Notes: generated from the sequence alone by a model not told the origin. Shown: positions 4,889-17,341, counted from the stretch's first letter. The stretch is 21,184 nucleotides of DNA from Nanobdellati archaeon (GCA_015520605.1 WAPT01000014.1:1-21184); one strand, 5' to 3'. A program made the numbers and translations.

Positions 4889-5731
4889 ATGGGGAAGAGA
4901 ATCACAAAACTTCTATTCGGTACAGCGGGCATACCCCTAAGCACCGAGAAACCAACAACGGAAAGGGGTATTGAGAGGGTTAGAGAGCTTGGCCTCGATG
5001 CAATGGAGCTGGAATTTGTTAGGAGCATACATATAAAGGAGGAAAAAACACCCCAGATAAGGAAGGTTGCCGAAGACAACAACGTTCTGCTGACGTGTCA
5101 CGCTCCCTACTACATAAACCTCAACGCTTCAGAAAAAGCCAAGGTGGAAGCCAGCAAGGAAAGGATAATCAATTCGGCGCGCATAGCTTATCTGTGTGGC
5201 GGGTGGAGTGTTGTTTTTCATGCAGCCTACTACATGAAAATGATAAAAGAGGAGGTTTATGAGAGGGTTAAGAAAGCTCTGCAGGACGTGGTTAAAAAGC
5301 TGAGAGACGAGAACATCGAAATCTGGATAAGACCGGAGCTGACCGGCAAGCCAACACAGTTCGGGGATGTTGATGAGCTGATAAAACTTGCACAGGAAGT
5401 TGAAATGGTATTGCCGTGCATCGATTTTGCGCACCTCCATGCAAGGTATTGCGGAGCTTACAACAGCAGAGAAGAGTGGGTGGACTTGCTTGAAAAAATT
5501 GAAAGAGAGCTCGGCAGAGAGGCTTTGGATAACATGCACATCCACATTTCCGGCATAAATTACGGCGAGAAGGGTGAGAGAAACCATCTGAATCTGGAGG
5601 AAAGCGATCTTAATTATGTTGAGTTGTTGCGCGTCCTAAAAGAGTTTAAGGTGAGAGGAGTCGTTATCTCCGAGAGCCCTAACATAGAAGGAGATGCTAT
5701 TTTGATGAAGAGGACTTATGAGAAGCTGTGA
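4889..5731 (+). CDS. nfo: Endonuclease IV (AP endonuclease family 2, TIM barrel)
   Basis: FGTAGIP, AMELEFV, HAPYYINL, VVFHAAYY, RPELTGK, CIDFAHLHAR, HIHISGI, GERNH, ISESP. Confidence 0.9.
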   Translation: MGKRITKLLFGTAGIPLSTEKPTTERGIERVRELGLDAMELEFVRSIHIKEEKTPQIRKVAEDNNVLLTCHAPYYINLNASEKAKVEASKERIINSARIAYLCGGWSVVFHAAYYMKMIKEEVYERVKKALQDVVKKLRDENIEIWIRPELTGKPTQFGDVDELIKLAQEVEMVLPCIDFAHLHARYCGAYNSREEWVDLLEKIERELGREALDNMHIHISGINYGEKGERNHLNLEESDLNYVELLRVLKEFKVRGVVISESPNIEGDAILMKRTYEKL

Positions 5732-9860: not shown

Positions 9861-10760
9861 TCAATCCACGACATTCAGGCCGAGATCCTCAGCATAACTA
9901 ACTGCTTTTTCCCATTCTTCCAGTTTTAGCGGTCTGCTTATATCCTCATACTCATGCGCTTTCCACTCCTGCCTGTACTGAGCCATGACATTCACAACAA
10001 CATTCCTGCCATTTATGTTCTCTGCAATCCATTCAAGCACGGGCTTTGTGCAGCATTCAAAGTGATTTGGCAGGACAAGATGTCTTATGCAAACATCAGC
10101 ATCCTCGGCAGCTTCCTTAAGGTTCCTTGTGACGGTGGCAAAATAATTCTTAACTTTTGATAAACGCAGAGCACACTCATCATTCCCGTACTTGAAATCA
10201 GGAAGATAGAGATCCACAACACCTTTTAGTAAGCTCATTGCTTTCTCGCTCATATAAAAGTTGGAATTCCACACAACAGGGGTGTGGACACTTTTTTCCT
10301 TCATTACCTGCAGTACTTTGAGTATGAACGGCAGATAAGGTGTGGGTTCACCACCAACAAAGTTGACATTCATTGCGTGTTGCTCTTTCCTTCTCGCTAT
10401 TATTTCAGCAAGAGCCTCCTCACTAACCCTTGTCCCGAACTCCAGCCAGTTCGAGATGGTGTAGTTCTGGCAGTAAACGCATGAAAGGTTGCAGCCCATA
10501 AAGAAGATGGTATGGGAAGGTACAAGGAAGTTCTCCTCACCATAGTGCAGGAACTCGCTGCTTATGTAAAGAAATGGTGGCGCTTTACACACACCCTTCT
10601 CGCCAGCGGTTCTGTTCACTCCACATCTGTGCTCGCAGAGCTCACAACTTTCAAGCAGCTTGAATGCTTCACTCGCTCTCTTCTCAAGATCAGCGCTCCA
10701 GAACCTCGGCTCTTCCTTTCCATCCCTCACAGCCACGTAATGTGGAAGTAACTCTCTCAT
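9861..10760 (-). CDS. Radical SAM protein, PflX-like (COG1313 type)
   Basis: CELCEHRCGVNR, HYGEE, GCNLSCVYCQN, VGGEPTP, YLPDFKYG, IRHLVLPNH. Start set at ATG 10760. Confidence 0.88.
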   Translation of the reverse strand: MRELLPHYVAVRDGKEEPRFWSADLEKRASEAFKLLESCELCEHRCGVNRTAGEKGVCKAPPFLYISSEFLHYGEENFLVPSHTIFFMGCNLSCVYCQNYTISNWLEFGTRVSEEALAEIIARRKEQHAMNVNFVGGEPTPYLPFILKVLQVMKEKSVHTPVVWNSNFYMSEKAMSLLKGVVDLYLPDFKYGNDECALRLSKVKNYFATVTRNLKEAAEDADVCIRHLVLPNHFECCTKPVLEWIAENINGRNVVVNVMAQYRQEWKAHEYEDISRPLKLEEWEKAVSYAEDLGLNVVD

Positions 10761-10784
10761 AGCGTTGAGTTGAGGAGGAACAAA

Positions 10785-10799
10785 GAAAAAGTTAAATAT
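10785..10799. promoter_or_regulatory. Probable bidirectional BRE/TATA element between the pflX-like gene and the RimK cluster
   Basis: GAAAAAGTTAAATAT, about 25 nt before ATG 10824 (+) and about 30 nt before ATG 10760 (-). Confidence 0.5.
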
Positions 10800-10823
10800 G
10801 TCTCGGGACAAAAACTTGTGGTG

Positions 10824-11252
10824 ATGATGGAGGAGGATGCCGACCATAATAGAACAGAAGGAAAAGAGGTTGTAGGGTTGATAACCAAGGTTAAGGTTCG
10901 CGGAAAAAACGGCGAGAGAGAGGTTCTGGCACTTTTTGATACGGGCGCCACAAGGACTTCTATAGATAAGAGGCTTGCTGAGGAGTTGCAGCTGGAAAGG
11001 AAGCGCAAAAAGGTGAAAGTAAAGTCAAAAACCATCCCGGAGGGCTATGTAACAAGGGGGATTTACGAGGCTGAGCTTGAGATAAATGGCAGGAAATTCA
11101 GAGTTGAGGCAAACGTAGCTGATAGGTCCAACGTGATGTGCCCCGTGCTTATAGGGAGAGATATCATCCACGGAAATTTCGTAATAGACGTTACGAAAAC
11201 GCACTTTTCCAACAAGCTGAAAGACATAAAGCCCGAACTCAGGGAGGAATGA
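10824..11252 (+). CDS. Retropepsin-like aspartic protease, RimK-associated (RimB-like) family
   Basis: ALFDTGATRTSID catalytic motif and ADRS...PVLIGRD...FVIDV C-terminal signature; start ATG 10824/10827 inferred from promoter spacing. Confidence 0.85.
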   Translation: MMEEDADHNRTEGKEVVGLITKVKVRGKNGEREVLALFDTGATRTSIDKRLAEELQLERKRKKVKVKSKTIPEGYVTRGIYEAELEINGRKFRVEANVADRSNVMCPVLIGRDIIHGNFVIDVTKTHFSNKLKDIKPELREE

Positions 11253-11255
11253 ATT

Positions 11256-12182
11256 ATGAAACTCTGTATTCTTGGGCCGGAATCCAAAAAGGACTATCAC
11301 CTTCGTCTAATAGAGCTTTCAAAGTATCATTTTGATAAGGTTTTGTATGCACCACTTTCAGGCGTGAGAATTGAGAGGGAAGGAGAGGAGTTCACACCGT
11401 ATTACAAGTCGGCATCACTTTACACCTTTGATGTTGTGCTCCCCCTCATCCCAAAGTCACTTGCTCACTTCGGTTATGCTGTCGTATCTCTTCTGGAAGA
11501 GCACGGAATCTTTACCCCCATAAGCAACAGATTTATATCTCATGCCTCCAACCCGTTCTTAATTGCGCTTCTCAACCAGAAGCTCGGTAATGCTGACTCA
11601 CCAATAAGAGTTTACCTTTCCGTCTCCAGAGACGCTCTAAACGCGATTCTACCGAAACTTAACTATCCTGTAAGGGTGTATATCCCTGAGGCAAAGAAGC
11701 AAGCATCCGCAACATTTGAATCTGAGGCAAGCCTGAAAAGCTTCCTTGACACGATAGAGTTGCTGGCACAGCCGATCATTCTGGAGGAAATAAAAACCTC
11801 AAAGAACCTGAGAGAGATGGATGTGCTCACCATAGGCAACAGAATTTTTGCCGTTCAGAAGGTGGGAAATGAAAAGAGAAGATGCAGAACATCGAAACAC
11901 ATACAGGGCTTTGTTCTAAGGATGGGGAAGATCCTTAAAACATCAATCTTTCAGGCGAGGATAATTGTTGAGAAAAATAGCATGTTTGTTAAGTCGCTCA
12001 ACACCTCCCCAGCTCTGAGTAGATTCGAGGATGTTTTCGGCAAAGGTATGGTAGAAGATTTAATAGCTTTCCTATCCAAAGAATGTGAGGAGTTCTACAG
12101 GAGGCATGCCCTGCTGACCTTCGTGGACAGGTTGGTGGAGCATCTGAGAACAATGGGAGGCAGACACTTCTCAAAAAGGTGA
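11256..12182 (+). CDS. RimK-like ATP-grasp paralogue with degenerate catalytic motifs
   Basis: RimK-type N-domain (MKLCILG...FDVVLPLI) and colinearity with the downstream RimK, but key residues are replaced: YPVRVY, ILEE, EMDVL, FQARII, KSLNTSPA. Confidence 0.7.
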   Translation: MKLCILGPESKKDYHLRLIELSKYHFDKVLYAPLSGVRIEREGEEFTPYYKSASLYTFDVVLPLIPKSLAHFGYAVVSLLEEHGIFTPISNRFISHASNPFLIALLNQKLGNADSPIRVYLSVSRDALNAILPKLNYPVRVYIPEAKKQASATFESEASLKSFLDTIELLAQPIILEEIKTSKNLREMDVLTIGNRIFAVQKVGNEKRRCRTSKHIQGFVLRMGKILKTSIFQARIIVEKNSMFVKSLNTSPALSRFEDVFGKGMVEDLIAFLSKECEEFYRRHALLTFVDRLVEHLRTMGGRHFSKR

Positions 12183-13066
12183 TCATGAAGATGGTTGAGG
12201 TACTTGTGGTGCATCCGAAATCAAAGTCCAAAACAACAGAGCTCATTCTGGAAGCGATGAGGAAACCTTTTGATGTGGTCAACTTGGCTCTCGATGATAT
12301 TGTTGTGGTCTCGCATACTGGCGGAGTGGAGATAAGGTCAAATGGTAGAGAGCTTAATAATGTTGACTACTTTTTTCCCAGAATAGATGGGAAGAGAGTA
12401 TTGCATGGGTACAACGTTGTAAAAGCATATGATTATCTCGGCATTAAACATCCCTATCCTGCAGAAACTCTCAGGATAGCTCACGACAAGTTCCTGACCA
12501 CGCTTGTTCTTGGGAATGCTGGCCTACCTGTACCAAGAACTTTTGCTCTAAAATCAGGAAGCGGGTTGAAGAAGGTAAAGGCAAGACTGAACTTTCCTGT
12601 GGTTGTGAAGATAATATCTGGTGCTGGTGGGAAGGGTGTGATGTTCGCCAATAGCGAAGAGGAGCTTGCAGCCATGGTAGGCTCGATGGAAGCTCTCAAC
12701 CAGGAGATAGTTCTGCAGGAGTTCATACCAAACAAAGGAGAAGATATAAGGATACTTGTATTAGGTGAAGAGGTCGCTGCTGCTATGAAAAGGATAGCGC
12801 CAAAAAGTGATAAACGTGCTAACATCTCAGGGGGAGGAAAAGCCGTATCCTATGATCCCCCTGATGAAGTGAAAGAGATCGCAATAAAAGCTTCTGAGAC
12901 TCTGGAAGCAAGAATTCTCGCTGTCGATATAATAATTGATACGGACGGCAATCCTTGGATCATAGAGGTCAATGTAAACCCCGGAATAAGGGGCCTTATG
13001 AAGGCTACAGACAAAAACATAGCCAGAATGATAGCGGAGTTTGTTGAGAGAGAGATCAAGAGTTAA
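12179..13066 (+). CDS. rimK: RimK-family ATP-grasp alpha-L-glutamate ligase
   Basis: HDKF, GLPVPRT, PVVVK..GAGGKGV, LQEFI, DIRILV, RANISGGG, AVDII, IIEVNVNPG are all intact; GTGA start/stop overlap with the upstream gene. Confidence 0.9.
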   Translation: MIMKMVEVLVVHPKSKSKTTELILEAMRKPFDVVNLALDDIVVVSHTGGVEIRSNGRELNNVDYFFPRIDGKRVLHGYNVVKAYDYLGIKHPYPAETLRIAHDKFLTTLVLGNAGLPVPRTFALKSGSGLKKVKARLNFPVVVKIISGAGGKGVMFANSEEELAAMVGSMEALNQEIVLQEFIPNKGEDIRILVLGEEVAAAMKRIAPKSDKRANISGGGKAVSYDPPDEVKEIAIKASETLEARILAVDIIIDTDGNPWIIEVNVNPGIRGLMKATDKNIARMIAEFVEREIKS

Positions 13067-13102
13067 ATTAATTTTAATTCTTCTCTTTGAGAATTGTTCT
13101 TC

Positions 13103-13840
13103 ATGAGGAAAGAAAACTTGCGGGTGGGATGCTGCGGATGGGGATTCTTTAATCCTAAAAAGCTGATGGGGGAAGACTGGAAAACTAAATACAGAAGCGT
13201 GCTTCAGGCTTACGCATCACTCTTCAATAGTGTGGAGGTCAACTCGACCTTTTACAGACTGCCAAAACCATCAACAGCAAGAAAGTGGTTTGAGGAAGCA
13301 AGAGAAGTTAATGCTGAATTTGAATTTACCGTCAAAGTACATCAGGACATAACCCACAAGCTGAAATTTGGAAAGGAAAGCGTTGAAGTGTTCAACAGAG
13401 TAAAAGAAATTGCGAGGAGTCTTGATGCAAAGGTTCTTGTGTTTCAGACAGCAGCCAGCTTTAGGCCAACGGAGGAAAACATAAGCAGAGTTGAAGATTT
13501 CTTTAGCTCAATAGACAGGGAAGATTTCATTCTTGTATGGGAGGTGAGGTGGCAGGAAGTATGGACAAAAGATATCGTCTCTGATTTATTCAGCAGACTT
13601 GATGTTGATCAGGTCGTTGATCCCCTCCGCCAGGAAATCTTTTATGCGAAAAGGTTGCACTATTTCCGCCTTCATGGCTTTGGGAACAGGATGTACGATT
13701 ACAAGTTCGGCGATGATGAACTTGAGAGATTAAGAGAAATTGTGGGAAGCTCTCTAAAGCTCAACGTAAAGGTTTACGTGTTCTTCAACAACTATAACAT
13801 GTATGAAGATGCTCTCAGGTTCATGAAGCTGATGAGGTAA
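13103..13840 (+). CDS. DUF72 (YecE-like) TIM-barrel protein
   Basis: VGCCGW, VEVNSTFY.LP, FTVK..Q.ITH, WEVR, YFRLHG, YVFFNN. Confidence 0.9.
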   Translation: MRKENLRVGCCGWGFFNPKKLMGEDWKTKYRSVLQAYASLFNSVEVNSTFYRLPKPSTARKWFEEAREVNAEFEFTVKVHQDITHKLKFGKESVEVFNRVKEIARSLDAKVLVFQTAASFRPTEENISRVEDFFSSIDREDFILVWEVRWQEVWTKDIVSDLFSRLDVDQVVDPLRQEIFYAKRLHYFRLHGFGNRMYDYKFGDDELERLREIVGSSLKLNVKVYVFFNNYNMYEDALRFMKLMR

Positions 13841-13845
13841 GTCAG

Positions 13846-15117
13846 ATGGGATCGGTGGTTGAAAAATATAAGGAAATTGATGAAAAACTCAGGGAACATA
13901 AAAAGTTCAGTGCAGGGATCCTTAAACTCCTGGAGCCAGTCAACCTTAGTGAGGAGAAGGAAAAGTTTATGCGAACTGGAGAGGAGCCCAAATTTAAGTA
14001 CCCGTTTGTTCTCTTCAACCCTAGAGACACCATAAAAAGATTATGCGAACTTAAGGTGCCGGAGGGTGAGCTTCACGAAATTTATGCGAACAAAATAGAG
14101 GAGCTGATAAATCTCGCATACATCATCCTACACCGTGGGGAGAGAAATGAGGTGCTTGAATACAGCACAAAGGTTTACGGAAAGCCATCTCCTGCACTTG
14201 TCCGAGAAGCGCTTAACATAATGAAAAATACTGCTGGTAAGAGACCTTCCCCAACCCGCTATGGTAAAAAGTATGATTGTAGATATGCCAAAACGCTCTT
14301 CGAGGAGACGATAAGGAATTACGGTATTAAAGGGTGGATTGTTGAGCTGAGCAGAAAGACTCTCGTTACAGTTATGCCTCTCGAAAAGAAAGTGCTTGTA
14401 CCTTATGGCAGGGAATTCACAACCTATGAATTGAGGAGGTTAGTGGTGCACGAGGTGGGGGTGCACGTTCTTAGAGCTGAAAACGGGCATAACCAGCCAC
14501 TGCACATATTTGCAAGCGGATTCCCGAACAACACGGAAACTGAGGAAGGGCTTGCAGTCTACATGGAAAAAGCAACCAAATTGCTAGAGAGAGAAAGGCT
14601 GAGAAACTACGCAGGTAGGGTTATAGCGGTGGATATGGTGGTGAAAGGTTACACATTTTCCGAGACGTTCAGCAAACTTAAAGAGCTCGGATTTAATGAT
14701 GATGATGCCTTCACTTTGACCTTCCGTGCGTTCAGAGGAGGAGCTTTCACCAAAGATTACCTGTATCTTAAAGGTTTGCTGGAAATTGAAAGGATTGCAA
14801 AGCGTAGAGGTGTGTTAAAACTTCTGTATCTGGGTAGAGTTACGTACCCATATCTGGAAACGCTGCAGAACCTCCTAGAGAACAGGGAGATAAAAGCTCC
14901 ATTTTACATGCCAAAGGGTATGAGGAGCCTTGCACGGGCGGAAAACTTATTAAAGCATGCGGAAACATTGATTAGAAGAGTCATCAGGAGATCGATAAAA
15001 TCGCTGCCAGAGCTTCCAAAGCTGGAGGTGATTGACAGTGAGGTTGGGAGAAAAATTACTCATGACCTCCGCGCTGCCTTACGGAAATGGCGAGCCACAC
15101 TTCGGACACGTGTATGA
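13846..15117 (+). CDS. DUF1704-family (MATCAP/TMCP-like) zinc carboxypeptidase
   Basis: LVVHEVGVHVLRAENG (HExxxH), TEEGLA, RAFRGG.FTKDYLYL.G, LYLGRV; basic C-terminal extension overlapping metG. Confidence 0.85.
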   Translation: MGSVVEKYKEIDEKLREHKKFSAGILKLLEPVNLSEEKEKFMRTGEEPKFKYPFVLFNPRDTIKRLCELKVPEGELHEIYANKIEELINLAYIILHRGERNEVLEYSTKVYGKPSPALVREALNIMKNTAGKRPSPTRYGKKYDCRYAKTLFEETIRNYGIKGWIVELSRKTLVTVMPLEKKVLVPYGREFTTYELRRLVVHEVGVHVLRAENGHNQPLHIFASGFPNNTETEEGLAVYMEKATKLLERERLRNYAGRVIAVDMVVKGYTFSETFSKLKELGFNDDDAFTLTFRAFRGGAFTKDYLYLKGLLEIERIAKRRGVLKLLYLGRVTYPYLETLQNLLENREIKAPFYMPKGMRSLARAENLLKHAETLIRRVIRRSIKSLPELPKLEVIDSEVGRKITHDLRAALRKWRATLRTRV

Positions 15118-16660
15118 GTTCATAATAACTGACATTATGGCCAGATTTTACAGACTCACCGGAAGGGACGTAATTTATGTGTGTGCTACTGATGCTCACG
15201 GCACACCGATAGAGATAAATGCGATGAAAGCTGGAAAGGATCCGCTAAGCTTTGTTATGGAGAATCATGAGAAGTTCAAGAAAATGTTTGAGTTTTTCCT
15301 GATAAGCCTTGACAACTACCACATAACACACAGCGAGGAAAACGAGAAAATAGCACATGAAATGTTCAAGAAAGCTCTGGAAAACGGATACATCTACACA
15401 AAGGAAATCGATCTACTTTTTTGCGAGAAATGCAACCGCTTCCTTCCCGACAGGTATGTTAGGGGAACATGTCCAAAATGCGGGGCTGAAGATCAGTACG
15501 GGGATGTATGCGAGAAGTGCGGAGCAACTTACACACCCTTCCAGCTTAAGAATCCAAAATGCGCTTTATGCGGGAGCAAACCAGTAATAATGAAAAGCAA
15601 ACACTACTTTTTCAAGCTGAGCGCTTTTGAAGGGAAGCTGAAGGCTTGGATTCAAAACGCTCCGCTTCAGCAAGAGGTTAAAAACTACGTGCTGGACTGG
15701 ATAGAAAAGGGACTTGAGGACTGGTGCATCTCAAGAGATGGTCCTTACTTTGGATTCAAAGTCCCGGGAGAAGAAAACAAGTACCTCTATGTGTGGTGGG
15801 ATGCTCCAATCGGGTACATAGCCTCAACAGCGAACTACTGCAAAAAAGCTGGATGTGACTGGGAAAAAATATGGAAGGGCACATGTGGAGAGTTTCAGAT
15901 TGTGCATACGATAGGGAAAGATATAATTTACTTCCACTATCTCTTCTGGCCGGCAATGCTAATGGCCACGGAATTTAAGCTTCCAACATACATTCACACT
16001 CATGGCTTCCTTACAGTAAACGGGGAGAAAATGAGCAAGAGCAGAGGTACATTTATCACGGCTAAAGACTACATGGAGAAGATCGGAAACCCCGAGTACT
16101 TGAGATTCTACTTTGCAAGCCACACCTCAAGTGGGATAACTGACATAGATCTGAGCAGGGAAGCTTTCCTGACAGCTGTGAACAGCGTGCTTGTCGGCAA
16201 CATAATGAACTTTGTTTACAGAGCACTCACGCTTCTGTATCGTTACTTTGAGGGGAAAACGATAAGTGCTTCTACTTACGATATGGAGGAGCTCGTTGAG
16301 GTGAAGAACATCCTTGAAAGAATAAGGGAGGCGTATGAAAACTGGAACATAAGGGAGGTTGTGGAGTGTGTGGATGGAATCGCGTCCATCGGAAATGCAT
16401 ACCTTCAAAAGAAGGAGCCGTGGAAGCTCGTTAGGGAAAACAAAGAAAAAGCTCATGAAGTCATAGCACAAGCTCTGAACATGGCCAAGGATATCTGCAT
16501 AGCTCTGTTCCCGATCCTGCCTTCAGCGTGCGGGAAAGCGCTGAAAATAATGAACCTTGAGGAGAGCTGGAACCTTATTGGAAAAGAGCTGGAGAATGGG
16601 CACATTATAAATAAGCCAGAGCCACTGATTCCCAAGATTGAGGACTTCCAGCTGTTTTAA
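15038..16660 (+). CDS. metG: Methionyl-tRNA synthetase, short form lacking the C-terminal tRNA-binding domain
   Basis: TSALPYGNGEPHFGH (HIGH-like), ATDAHGTPI, four CxxC (two zinc knuckles), YVWWDAPIGY, GKDI, KMSKS. SD GGAGGTGA at 15024-15031 favours GTG 15038 (TTG 15032 is an alternative). Confidence 0.95.
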   Translation: MRLGEKLLMTSALPYGNGEPHFGHVYEFIITDIMARFYRLTGRDVIYVCATDAHGTPIEINAMKAGKDPLSFVMENHEKFKKMFEFFLISLDNYHITHSEENEKIAHEMFKKALENGYIYTKEIDLLFCEKCNRFLPDRYVRGTCPKCGAEDQYGDVCEKCGATYTPFQLKNPKCALCGSKPVIMKSKHYFFKLSAFEGKLKAWIQNAPLQQEVKNYVLDWIEKGLEDWCISRDGPYFGFKVPGEENKYLYVWWDAPIGYIASTANYCKKAGCDWEKIWKGTCGEFQIVHTIGKDIIYFHYLFWPAMLMATEFKLPTYIHTHGFLTVNGEKMSKSRGTFITAKDYMEKIGNPEYLRFYFASHTSSGITDIDLSREAFLTAVNSVLVGNIMNFVYRALTLLYRYFEGKTISASTYDMEELVEVKNILERIREAYENWNIREVVECVDGIASIGNAYLQKKEPWKLVRENKEKAHEVIAQALNMAKDICIALFPILPSACGKALKIMNLEESWNLIGKELENGHIINKPEPLIPKIEDFQLF

Positions 16661-16725
16661 GGAGAAGCAAAGACATCCTGCTTAATTTTTTAAAAAGTTA
16701 TTATCTAAACAAATTTGTCACACCA

Positions 16726-16743
16726 CCACAACTCCCACAACTC
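16726..16743 (+). repeat. 9-bp tandem duplication (CCACAACTC x2) just upstream of tRNA-Val
   Basis: CCACAACTC at 16726-16734 and 16735-16743. Confidence 0.6.
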
Positions 16744-16749
16744 TACTGT

Positions 16750-16825
16750 GGGCCGGTGGTCTAGGGGTTATGACGCTCCCCTGACGCGGGAGAGATCCCA
16801 GGTTCGATTCCTGGCCGGCCCACCA
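16750..16825 (+). tRNA. tRNA-Val(GAC), intronless, CCA encoded
   Basis: Acceptor GGGCCGG/CCGGCCC, anticodon arm CTCCC-CTGACGC-GGGAG, T arm CCAGG-TTCGATT-CCTGG, 3' ACCA; 76 nt. Confidence 0.97.
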
Positions 16826-16861
16826 GTTACTGCAACTCTGCAAGAGGTGTGGAACAAGGTT

Positions 16862-17341
16862 ATGAATATCGTGATAAGAGAAGCTGATGAAGACGACTCG
16901 GATCGCATAGCGGATCTTCTCCTTAAAATGCAGGACGAGGAGAAGAAATTTGACCCTCTCCTGAAGAGCTCTTCCAGCCACGAAATGCAGGAATCCGCAA
17001 AGCGATATGCTCACAACGCTGTTAAAAATAACGATAGGATAACTCTTGTTGCTGAAGTTGACAACAGGGTTGTAGGATTTATTATAGCTAAGATATTTAC
17101 CTATGGCGGGATATACGATAAAGAGAGAGCAATCTACATCAGCGATCTGTATACGGAAAAAGAATACAGAGGTAAAGGAATAGGTTCCATGCTTCTACAT
17201 GCTTTGGAAGATGAAGCAAGGAAAAGAGATATTAGGATTCTTGAGCTTGATACCTATGCAGAAAGCGAGAACTCCATTCAGTTCTACAGCAGGCGAGGGT
17301 ACAAAGCTGTGGATATCAGGATGAGGAAAGTCCTGGGATAA
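16862..17341 (+). CDS. GNAT-family N-acetyltransferase
   Basis: IREA, LVAE...VVGF, ISDLY...YRGKGIGSMLL, N..SIQFY.RRGY. The ORF-track extension to 16715 runs through the tRNA and is rejected. Confidence 0.9.
   Translation: MNIVIREADEDDSDRIADLLLKMQDEEKKFDPLLKSSSSHEMQESAKRYAHNAVKNNDRITLVAEVDNRVVGFIIAKIFTYGGIYDKERAIYISDLYTEKEYRGKGIGSMLLHALEDEARKRDIRILELDTYAESENSIQFYSRRGYKAVDIRMRKVLG

Follow-up and report, generated by a model that had tools for sequence, protein, structure and literature searches.

Work on RimK has centred on bacteria, where it modifies the ribosomal protein bS6 and has the protease RimB as its partner, and both rimB-rimK gene pairs and RimBK fusions are known from bacterial surveys (PMC11957791). 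The published RimB-RimK survey deals with bacteria only, the word "archaea" occurring 0 times in its main text (PMC11957791), and in the literature on DUF1704, prokaryotic MATCAP and archaeal or DPANN RimK, supplementary files aside, we found no description of the archaeal gene set reported here. It lies on a contig of 21,184 bp from a Nanobdellati archaeon (GCA_015520605.1, WAPT01000014.1:1-21184), the whole of which is the window analyzed, and comprises a retropepsin-like protease, a degenerate RimK paralogue (pseudo-RimK) and an intact RimK-family ligase, hereafter the trio, followed on the same strand by genes for a DUF72 protein and a MATCAP/DUF1704 zinc metallopeptidase. The trio is best read as a three-component RimB-RimK variant of archaea lacking bS6, with interchangeable accessory hydrolases.

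In the RimA-RimB-RimK system of Pseudomonas an intact RimK ligase likewise stands beside a small DTG retropepsin matching PF05618, the profile of the window RimK is nearest to the Pseudomonas and Escherichia coli RimK structures, and RimBK fusions such as those of the bacterial surveys are also found among its homologues. The window differs from the Pseudomonas system in its archaeal host, in whose genome bS6 was not found, in having no RimA and in possessing a dead RimK paralogue as a fixed third member. The RloA-RloB-RloC genes of P. aeruginosa also combine a retropepsin, an ATP-grasp ligase and an inactive enzyme homologue, but there the retropepsin is secreted and the inactive member is a transglutaminase-7TM (seven-transmembrane) protein, whereas here it is a dead ligase; retropepsins of the window type match RloA weakly, all their scores on the NCBIfam RloA models falling far below cut-off. 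For the dead paralogue itself, a parallel exists in the trypanosomatid deoxyhypusine synthase, a heterotetramer in which a dead paralogue serves as activator (PMC3663545). There too a dead paralogue is kept under selection beside an active enzyme and could provide a model for pseudo-RimK, although the fold is different and the likeness is one of analogy only.

The peptidase downstream of the trio invites comparison with two further systems. In the eukaryotic tubulin-tail cycle, Glu and Tyr are added to acidic tails by ATP-grasp ligases (TTL/TTLL) and removed by MATCAP/TMCP enzymes, which belong to the same Pfam family as the window peptidase (PMC10499314); the match of the latter to human MATCAP is, however, limited to the catalytic core (73 bits), and its linkage to RimK to one genus. 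In a bacterial GshB-like/FGase/QEGLA neighbourhood a peptidase of the MATCAP family is likewise encoded 3' of an ATP-grasp ligase, but in the four loci checked this ligase was GshB-like and not RimK, and the FGase (N-formylglutamate amidohydrolase-like) component present there is absent here.

Our reading of the archaeal locus, to which we assign a probability of roughly 0.55, distinguishes two units. The first (10824-13066) would be an archaeal RimB-RimK variant with a fixed dead paralogue, in which the predicted-active RimK would ligate Glu with ATP into alpha-linked chains, the retropepsin would cut these chains endolytically, and pseudo-RimK may be a structural or regulatory subunit binding RimK, the protease dimer, or both. 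The second (13103-16660) would be a genus-specific neighbour with a plausible accessory exopeptidase, MATCAP, that may act on the same products, a role which AstE/AspA would fill in other lineages. This complex formation, chemistry and choice of substrate, as well as the operon structure, are what we infer from the observations below. The near-universal retention of the trio in genomes of 0.5-2.2 Mb without bS6 argues for an important function other than S6 modification, and the archaeal genes could reveal a general role of RimK systems, be it poly-glutamate turnover or another protein target. The trio would also be a clear-cut example of an ATP-grasp system with a pseudoenzyme among its subunits, and the interchangeable zinc hydrolases (MATCAP, AstE/AspA) give the prokaryotic relatives of MATCAP a testable role.

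The retropepsin, pseudo-RimK and RimK trio

The host belongs to a DPANN-type lineage. Its genome (863 kb, 90.7% complete) falls in a GTDB phylum of 42 species genomes, all from one order and of 0.5-2.2 Mb each, some of our phylum searches taking in 41 of them and others 42. An initial annotation of the window, made from the sequence alone, had described five co-oriented genes separated by 3 nucleotides (nt), a 4-nt overlap, 36 nt and 5 nt, and the coordinates of the open reading frames (ORFs) bear this out: all five lie on the plus strand, with 3 nt between retropepsin and pseudo-RimK, a 4-nt overlap (GTGA) between pseudo-RimK and RimK, 36 nt between RimK and DUF72 if the ATG at 13103 is used, and 5 nt between DUF72 and MATCAP. 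Purifying selection acts on each of the five genes, the ratio of nonsynonymous to synonymous substitution rates (dN/dS) being 0.06-0.20 between two genomes of the genus (G000 vs. G002), and PADLOC returned 0 matches for the five proteins.

The first gene (10824-11252, +; alternative start 10770) encodes a retropepsin-like aspartic peptidase. The product matched PF13975 (gag-asp_proteas, 41.4 bits), PF13650 (39.6 bits) and PF05618 (Zn_protease, 34.3 bits; cut-off 27), the last match spanning profile positions 54-134 of 138 only, while its scores on TIGR03698 and the RloA models were below cut-off. The DTGA motif (10938-10949; D39, T40, G41 and A42) was invariant in 12/12 orthologues, in agreement with the DTG protease of the initial annotation. 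With PF05618 and the DTG motif together, the predicted product is a RimB-type retropepsin, and its gene showed a dN/dS of 0.20 in the genome pair given above. A candidate archaeal promoter box, AAAGAAAAAGTTAAATAT, is located at 10782-10799 (+), 25-42 nt 5' of the retropepsin ATG; the three genomes of the genus all keep it, even the one at only 55-78% protein identity, and it may function as a promoter. Mre11/Rad50 genes occur 5' of the retropepsin in three genomes, which we took as synteny only.

The third gene (12179-13066, +) scored 169.6 bits on TIGR00768 (cut-off 143.4) and 129.9 bits on PF08443 (cut-off 21). Invariant in 14/14 orthologues were H102, D103, K104 and F105, K144, G148/G150/G151/G153, Q180, D189 and R191, as well as K204 and R205, R213 and N215, D250, E263 and N265, residues which, following general ATP-grasp enzymology, we take to be those of catalysis. 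The product is accordingly predicted from its sequence to belong to the RimK family of alpha-L-glutamate ligases and to have its ATP-grasp site intact. Compared with solved structures, its profile reached 175-179 bits with Pseudomonas and E. coli RimK, 133 with ArgX and 100-105 with LysX, and its nearest database relatives were DPANN proteins labeled "RimK family", joined by a few from bacteria and by fusions of RimB with RimK. On the model for bS6-Glu ligases (NF007764) it reached 122.5 bits where 331 are required, and bS6 itself (PF01250, Ribosomal_S6), rightly presumed to be lacking in the initial annotation, was not found in the genome by a model that matched 10/14 control genomes.

These scores also bear on whether the ligase might be of the MptN, CofF, LysX or ArgX type, with the protease and the paralogue as incidental neighbours. 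NCBIfam MptN was indeed the second-best match at 144.1 bits, and LysX reached 132.9, but the equivalog cut-offs (350 for MptN, 275.6 for LysX and 300 for CofF, on which the score was 90.9) were missed widely and the profile stands closer to RimK from bacteria than to either ArgX or LysX; moreover cofE, lysW and mch, each of which matched 3-4 control genomes, were not found in the genome at its 90.7% completeness, and the gene has kept its linkage to a retropepsin, just as rimK has to rimB in bacteria. Such an arrangement of a cofactor-type ligase among unrelated neighbours is thus extremely improbable. Since the cut-offs were missed, the partner genes were not found and the nearest profiles were those of bacterial RimK, LysX, CofF and MptN roles are unlikely, and the lack of support for them, already noticed within the window, extends to the whole genome. 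G008 and G039, two genomes that belong to different families, have an archaeal histone-fold gene directly 3' of RimK (L030:5584-5892, +; L037:3744-3953, +), and a CBS-domain gene holds that place in G007 (L025:4971-5348, -).

Between these two genes lies that of pseudo-RimK (11256-12182, +). Its sole Pfam match was Rimk_N (27.7 bits vs. a cut-off of 26.4), and no NCBIfam model matched at E <= 0.01. Nonetheless, an hhalign comparison of its profile (18 orthologues) with that of RimK (14) aligned the two over their full length with a probability of 100 and an identity of 21%, and solved RimK structures were matched full-length at 70-78 bits. In this alignment HDKF, the SG(S/A)GGKG glycine loop, KR...RAN, D250 and E263 are substituted or deleted in pseudo-RimK, the KR...RAN segment having gone through a 14-residue deletion, and the window protein has Y at the position of K144; the presence of two RimK-fold proteins, one intact and one degenerate, was thus correctly recognized at the outset. 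By its residues the product falls outside the RimK family, though its homology to RimK is certain, and it has its own set of invariant residues, P138 as well as D165 and E168 in a DTxE motif, with a dN/dS of 0.135 (G000 vs. G002). As judged from its sequence, pseudo-RimK is a RimK-derived pseudoenzyme, neither a RimK ligase nor a decaying gene. The 4-nt overlap and the 3-nt gap fit a translational coupling with its neighbours. Members of two pseudo-RimK clusters bear only the label "hypothetical protein" at NCBI. A second, more diverged pseudo-RimK-like copy is present on another contig of G001, a genome of the window's genus (L044:5393-6262, corresponding to G001:C2:55395-56264), one search having reported a TAG within this match.

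Across the phylum, pseudo-RimK occurred in 39/42 genomes, RimK in 38/41 and the retropepsin in 36/41. According to the position tables the three genes are contiguous in 15 genomes, with two more split at contig ends; pseudo-RimK and RimK are adjacent with the protease elsewhere in nine (family f3), protease and pseudo-RimK are adjacent with RimK elsewhere in six (families f2 and f8), and RimK beside the protease without pseudo-RimK was seen in 0 genomes of the phylum. The conserved unit of the locus is therefore the retropepsin, pseudo-RimK and RimK. Of the glutamate-tagging module that had been proposed for all five genes, this part, a RimK with a degenerate paralogue and a RimB-like retropepsin, stands, while the five genes do not form one unit.

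Beyond the phylum, a profile search with pseudo-RimK against 1.84 billion representatives gave 1577 matches at E <= 0.001. Among the best 150 of these, 132 were at least 250 aa long, of which 51 keep six catalytic residues and 81 are without at least one; for 67 of the latter 81 the profile of pseudo-RimK gave a better score than that of RimK. In a quick maximum-likelihood tree of 97 rows, the 53 rows of intact RimK all lay on one side of a branch with 99% support in the Shimodaira-Hasegawa-like approximate likelihood ratio test (SH-aLRT) and three degenerate clades on the opposite side, where long-branch effects are possible; the consensus of one degenerate clade has the N-terminal and DT...QPI motifs common to the pseudo-RimKs of the phylum. 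A metagenome scan with one pseudo-RimK protein returned a single locus outside the phylum (L159), in which retropepsin, intact RimK and pseudo-RimK follow each other in this order, flanked by ArgRS and mevalonate-pathway genes. Three other DPANN genomes had plain retropepsin-RimK pairs, where the pseudo-RimK profile A1 matched the intact RimK alone.

The same data can be read as those of a diverged paralogue that is a partner of neither RimK nor the protease, that serves some non-catalytic purpose of its own, for example the binding of a ligand, and that has stayed nearby only through descent from a tandem duplication. The 99% SH-aLRT branch separating the degenerate clades from the 53 intact RimKs argues for an old duplication, the genes are dispersed in family f5, and in two Aenigmatarchaeota genomes a degenerate paralogue stands apart from RimK, beside an MscS-like gene. 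We consider this very unlikely, as adjacency to RimK or the protease has lasted in at least 30 genomes and, in a different order, in L159, the split clusters leave pseudo-RimK with one of its two partners, and the start/stop overlaps suggest coupled translation.

DUF72, MATCAP and other candidate exopeptidases

The fourth gene (13103-13840, +; alternative start 13094) encodes a TM1631-like TIM-barrel protein of the DUF72 family (PF01904, 127.2 bits, cut-off 25.3; PDB 1VPQ, TM1631, E 8.3e-8). The family was found in 7/42 phylum genomes, outside the genus of the window on contigs other than that of the trio, and DUF72 and MATCAP adjoin the trio in that genus only (3 genomes). DUF72, which the initial annotation had counted as part of the module, is thus probably unrelated to it. 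A TIM-barrel gene 3' of MATCAP in a Woesearchaeota locus (L068) was considered as a counterpart of DUF72 and discarded for its weak similarity (E 0.01); its product is an AP_endonuc_2 protein, by eye nearer to the other TIM-barrel gene of the window (4889-5731).

Between RimK and DUF72 lies an AT-rich gap (TTAAATTAATTTTAATT...; 13067-13102, +), a candidate internal promoter and/or terminator by its sequence. The AT-rich stretch noticed initially is thus present, and an AT-rich box 3' of the RimK stop recurs in 3/3 genomes of the genus, the start of DUF72 following some 25-35 nt later.

The fifth gene (13846-15117, +) scored 232.2 bits on PF08014 (cut-off 27) and 238.7 bits on TIGR02421 (QEGLA), the latter below the cut-off of 338.65. 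Its HEVGVH (14449-14466) and EEGLA (14542-14556) motifs correspond to H202, E203 and H207 of HExxxH and to T232, E233, E234, G235 and L236, all invariant in 9/9 orthologues, so that the peptidase predicted from these motifs was recovered as such. The hidden Markov model match, HExxxH and the EEG ligand together indicate a putative MATCAP/DUF1704 zinc metallopeptidase. The human KIAA0895L structures 7Z5G and 7Z6S matched its profile at 70-73 bits, in the catalytic core only, and in this genus a basic stretch of about 60 aa extends the C-terminus, other genera being without it. The most similar public MATCAP loci come from records of Nanobdellati archaeon, "archaeon", Candidatus Nanohaloarchaea/Nanohalarchaeota, Aenigmatarchaeota and Woesearchaeota. 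The last 56-86 nt of the gene overlap the start of metG (15032-15117), which begins at 15032 (TTG) or 15062 (ATG), and this gene order and overlap are repeated in both other genomes of the genus. Within the phylum, a neighbourhood and co-occurrence survey of the kind that the initial annotation had called for upheld the trio, but the link to DUF1704 in one genus only: MATCAP was found in 14/41 phylum genomes and linked to RimK in 3, and the flanks of the 10 other phylum MATCAP loci fetched contained no gene homologous to the trio or to DUF72; six of these loci were searched with Pfam and had unrelated housekeeping genes as neighbours (MCM, Lsm, primase, DRG GTPase, HerA, POR or an M29 peptidase). 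Because the adjacency is restricted to the genus, the gap is AT-rich and MATCAP overlaps metG, DUF72, MATCAP and metG probably form a separate, genus-specific neighbour unit with its own promoter.

The initial proposal, a single operon for reversible glutamylation in which the five genes supply a writer, a pseudo-writer, an endo-eraser, an exo-eraser and a functional DUF72 component, draws on their common orientation and tight spacing, which persist in 3/3 genomes of the genus even where protein identity drops to 53-78%, on the purifying selection acting on all of them, and on the linkage of bacterial MATCAP relatives to ATP-grasp ligases. It is nevertheless unlikely. DUF72 is present in only 7/42 genomes and away from the trio outside the genus, and its sole solved relative, TM1631, is a hypothetical protein; the 10 other MATCAP loci fetched have neither trio nor DUF72 homologues in their flanks, the six searched with Pfam showing MCM, Lsm, DRG GTPase, HerA and POR genes; and the single operon initially drawn is interrupted by a promoter-like AT-rich gap 5' of DUF72, while at its other end MATCAP runs into metG, a housekeeping gene.

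An exopeptidase may nonetheless accompany the trio in more than one form. In genus g11 a 344-aa AstE/AspA zinc hydrolase is encoded directly 3' of RimK in 4/4 genomes, co-oriented and with gaps of 16-22 nt (L028:3956-4987, -; L162:1041-2072, +; L163:3117-4148, -; L164:178-1209, +). AstE/AspA proteins are related to M14 carboxypeptidases, the group that contains the cytosolic carboxypeptidases (CCPs), which stand beside MATCAP/TMCP in the tubulin-tail cycle. The family was detected in 23/42 phylum genomes, and among the 41 searched for both families 19 had AstE/AspA only, 11 MATCAP only, three both and eight neither, so that the two distributions are partly complementary.

In public genomes, the best 80 of 578 MATCAP loci comprised 65 bacterial and 15 archaeal ones, mostly from Flavobacteriaceae and Photobacterium and hence not independent. 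A co-oriented ATP-grasp gene was present 5' of MATCAP in 57 of these 65 bacterial loci; where checked (L058, L061, L062 and L077) it belonged to the GshB-like family NF009110 (PRK12458 glutathione-synthetase subfamily). Among the archaeal loci an ATP-grasp neighbour was seen in 3/15, two from the genus of the window and one from Woesearchaeota. The bacterial MATCAP/QEGLA protein is often a 666-aa fusion to an N-terminal FGase domain, a separate FGase gene preceding it elsewhere (L058:7056-9053, L077:3685-5685; L061:7087-9071), and the members in L058 and L077 scored 370-442 bits on TIGR02421. Given the AstE/AspA gene after RimK in g11 and the linkage of bacterial MATCAP to ATP-grasp ligases, an exopeptidase partner for the trio is plausible. 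The TMCP/MATCAP enzymes, which have HExxxH and an EEG ligand, strip Tyr and Glu from C-termini and also take off polyglutamylation (PMC10499314). The exo-acting eraser first ascribed to DUF1704 is therefore retained in part, its adjacency to RimK being confined to one genus while an AstE/AspA equivalent in g11 and the bacterial ATP-grasp linkage speak for it.

Acceptor and physiology

The acceptor of the glutamate chains is slightly more likely to be free glutamate or oligo-glutamate than a protein tail, in which case the trio would serve poly-alpha-Glu turnover and glutamate or osmolyte homeostasis. RimB cleaves poly-Glu, including internal poly-Glu stretches, and stimulates RimK (PMC11957791). 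A screen for Glu-Glu or acidic C-termini returned 18 of 1048 crude ORFs, three of which were followed: the REE end of the retropepsin occurs in G000 and G002 only, the EEEE end of RpoB in the genus only and the WEE end of aEF1A in G000 only. That none of these ends is conserved across the phylum does not prove free poly-Glu.

In family f2, RimK lies directly 3' of the stalk genes P0 (uL10)-P1, on the same strand and with gaps of 15-52 nt, in 4/4 RimK-positive genomes (L040:5320-7566, -; L042:4947-7197, -; L160:450-1670, -; L161:463-2734, -), the retropepsin and pseudo-RimK of this family lying elsewhere, after Mre11/Rad50 in two annotated loci (L033 and L034). Such an arrangement raises the possibility that the trio has one particular archaeal protein as its target, in all likelihood a component of the ribosome or of translation such as the P0/P1 stalk, whose tails are rich in Glu and Lys; bacterial RimK does modify a ribosomal protein, and the ability of RimB to cut internal poly-Glu would suit a protein-borne chain (PMC11957791). 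However, P0 and P1 end in GLGALFG and have no long Glu run, and in the genome of the window they are on a different contig. The stalk adjacency is confined to one family and possibly reflects one event, chance adjacency being likely in small genomes dense in translation genes, and the Glu-Glu ends of the three ORFs followed are not conserved beyond the genus. A dedicated protein target is thus conceivable, but clearly less probable than the function we favour, in which the trio is a RimB-RimK variant making and cutting glutamate chains.

That interpretation, with DUF72, MATCAP and metG as a separate neighbour, has itself a number of observations weighing against it. All three genes of the trio are apart in family f5, and the phylum genomes are kin, so that the counts overstate independent support. 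Most pseudo-RimKs retain the K144 equivalent and QE and hence may bind nucleotides. The adjacency of MATCAP and RimK is limited to one genus, that is 3 of the 14 MATCAP-bearing genomes, while both MATCAP and AstE/AspA are present in three genomes and neither in eight (completeness 72-92%). Finally, among the three candidates followed (retropepsin, RpoB and aEF1A) no Glu-Glu C-terminus was conserved across the phylum.

Some neighbouring genes and published responses offer leads towards osmotic physiology. In family f3 a small MscS-like gene (266-315 aa) directly follows pseudo-RimK-RimK in 8/9 genomes (for instance L027:4356-5153, -; L036:2738-3682, +; L043:4287-5084, -), and in two divergent Aenigmatarchaeota genomes a homologous gene (28-34% identity) directly follows the degenerate RimK paralogue in 2/2 (L133:6975-7823, +; L134:5559-6401, -). 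The genome of the window has one MscS gene, away from the trio (C16:40451-40651). In Photobacterium damselae the "GshB" gene adjoins the QEGLA gene, and both are, with rimK, among the genes most induced at low salt, 1% vs. 3% NaCl giving inductions of 38.4-fold for "GshB", 27.5-fold for QEGLA and 52.2-fold for rimK (PMC10308900, Table 2). The RloA retropepsins of P. aeruginosa are required for hypo-osmotic survival (PMC11957051).

As a tentative and rather doubtful extension, RimK, dead RimK and retropepsin could be a three-protein machine, present in at least two DPANN lineages, that converts free Glu into poly-alpha-glutamate and back and so buffers both osmolarity and glutamate in cells lacking bS6. 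The dead paralogue would dock ligase and protease, polymerisation would leave fewer osmotically active particles, and this would be undone by hydrolysis or by the opening of a channel, a MATCAP or AstE/AspA exopeptidase and the small MscS-like channel being possible add-ons of single lineages.

Other features of the window

Upstream of the trio, a divergent radical SAM ORF (PFL-activase-like; 9861-10847, -) overlaps, as listed, the 5' region of the retropepsin. Its start is likely the ATG at 10760, since the orthologue in G001 aligns only from residue 20, and the gene adjoins the trio in the genus of the window only.

Downstream, metG (methionine-tRNA ligase; 15062-16660, +; NF001100, 670.5 bits) is followed just 3' by a tRNA-Val(GAC) gene (16750-16825), through which a long ORF (16715-17341) runs; the start of the GNAT acetyltransferase is probably near 16856. 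At least half of the sampled words of the stretch were found in two DNA runs of one study, both labeled hydrothermal vent metagenome, one of which is possibly its source; no RNA run containing the stretch was found. At the other end of the window, a gene without a Pfam match (1672-2988, -) encodes a protein of 438 aa, possibly located at the surface, that has Gly/Tyr-rich repeats as well as a hydrophobic segment at its N-terminus and a hydrophobic anchor at its C-terminus.

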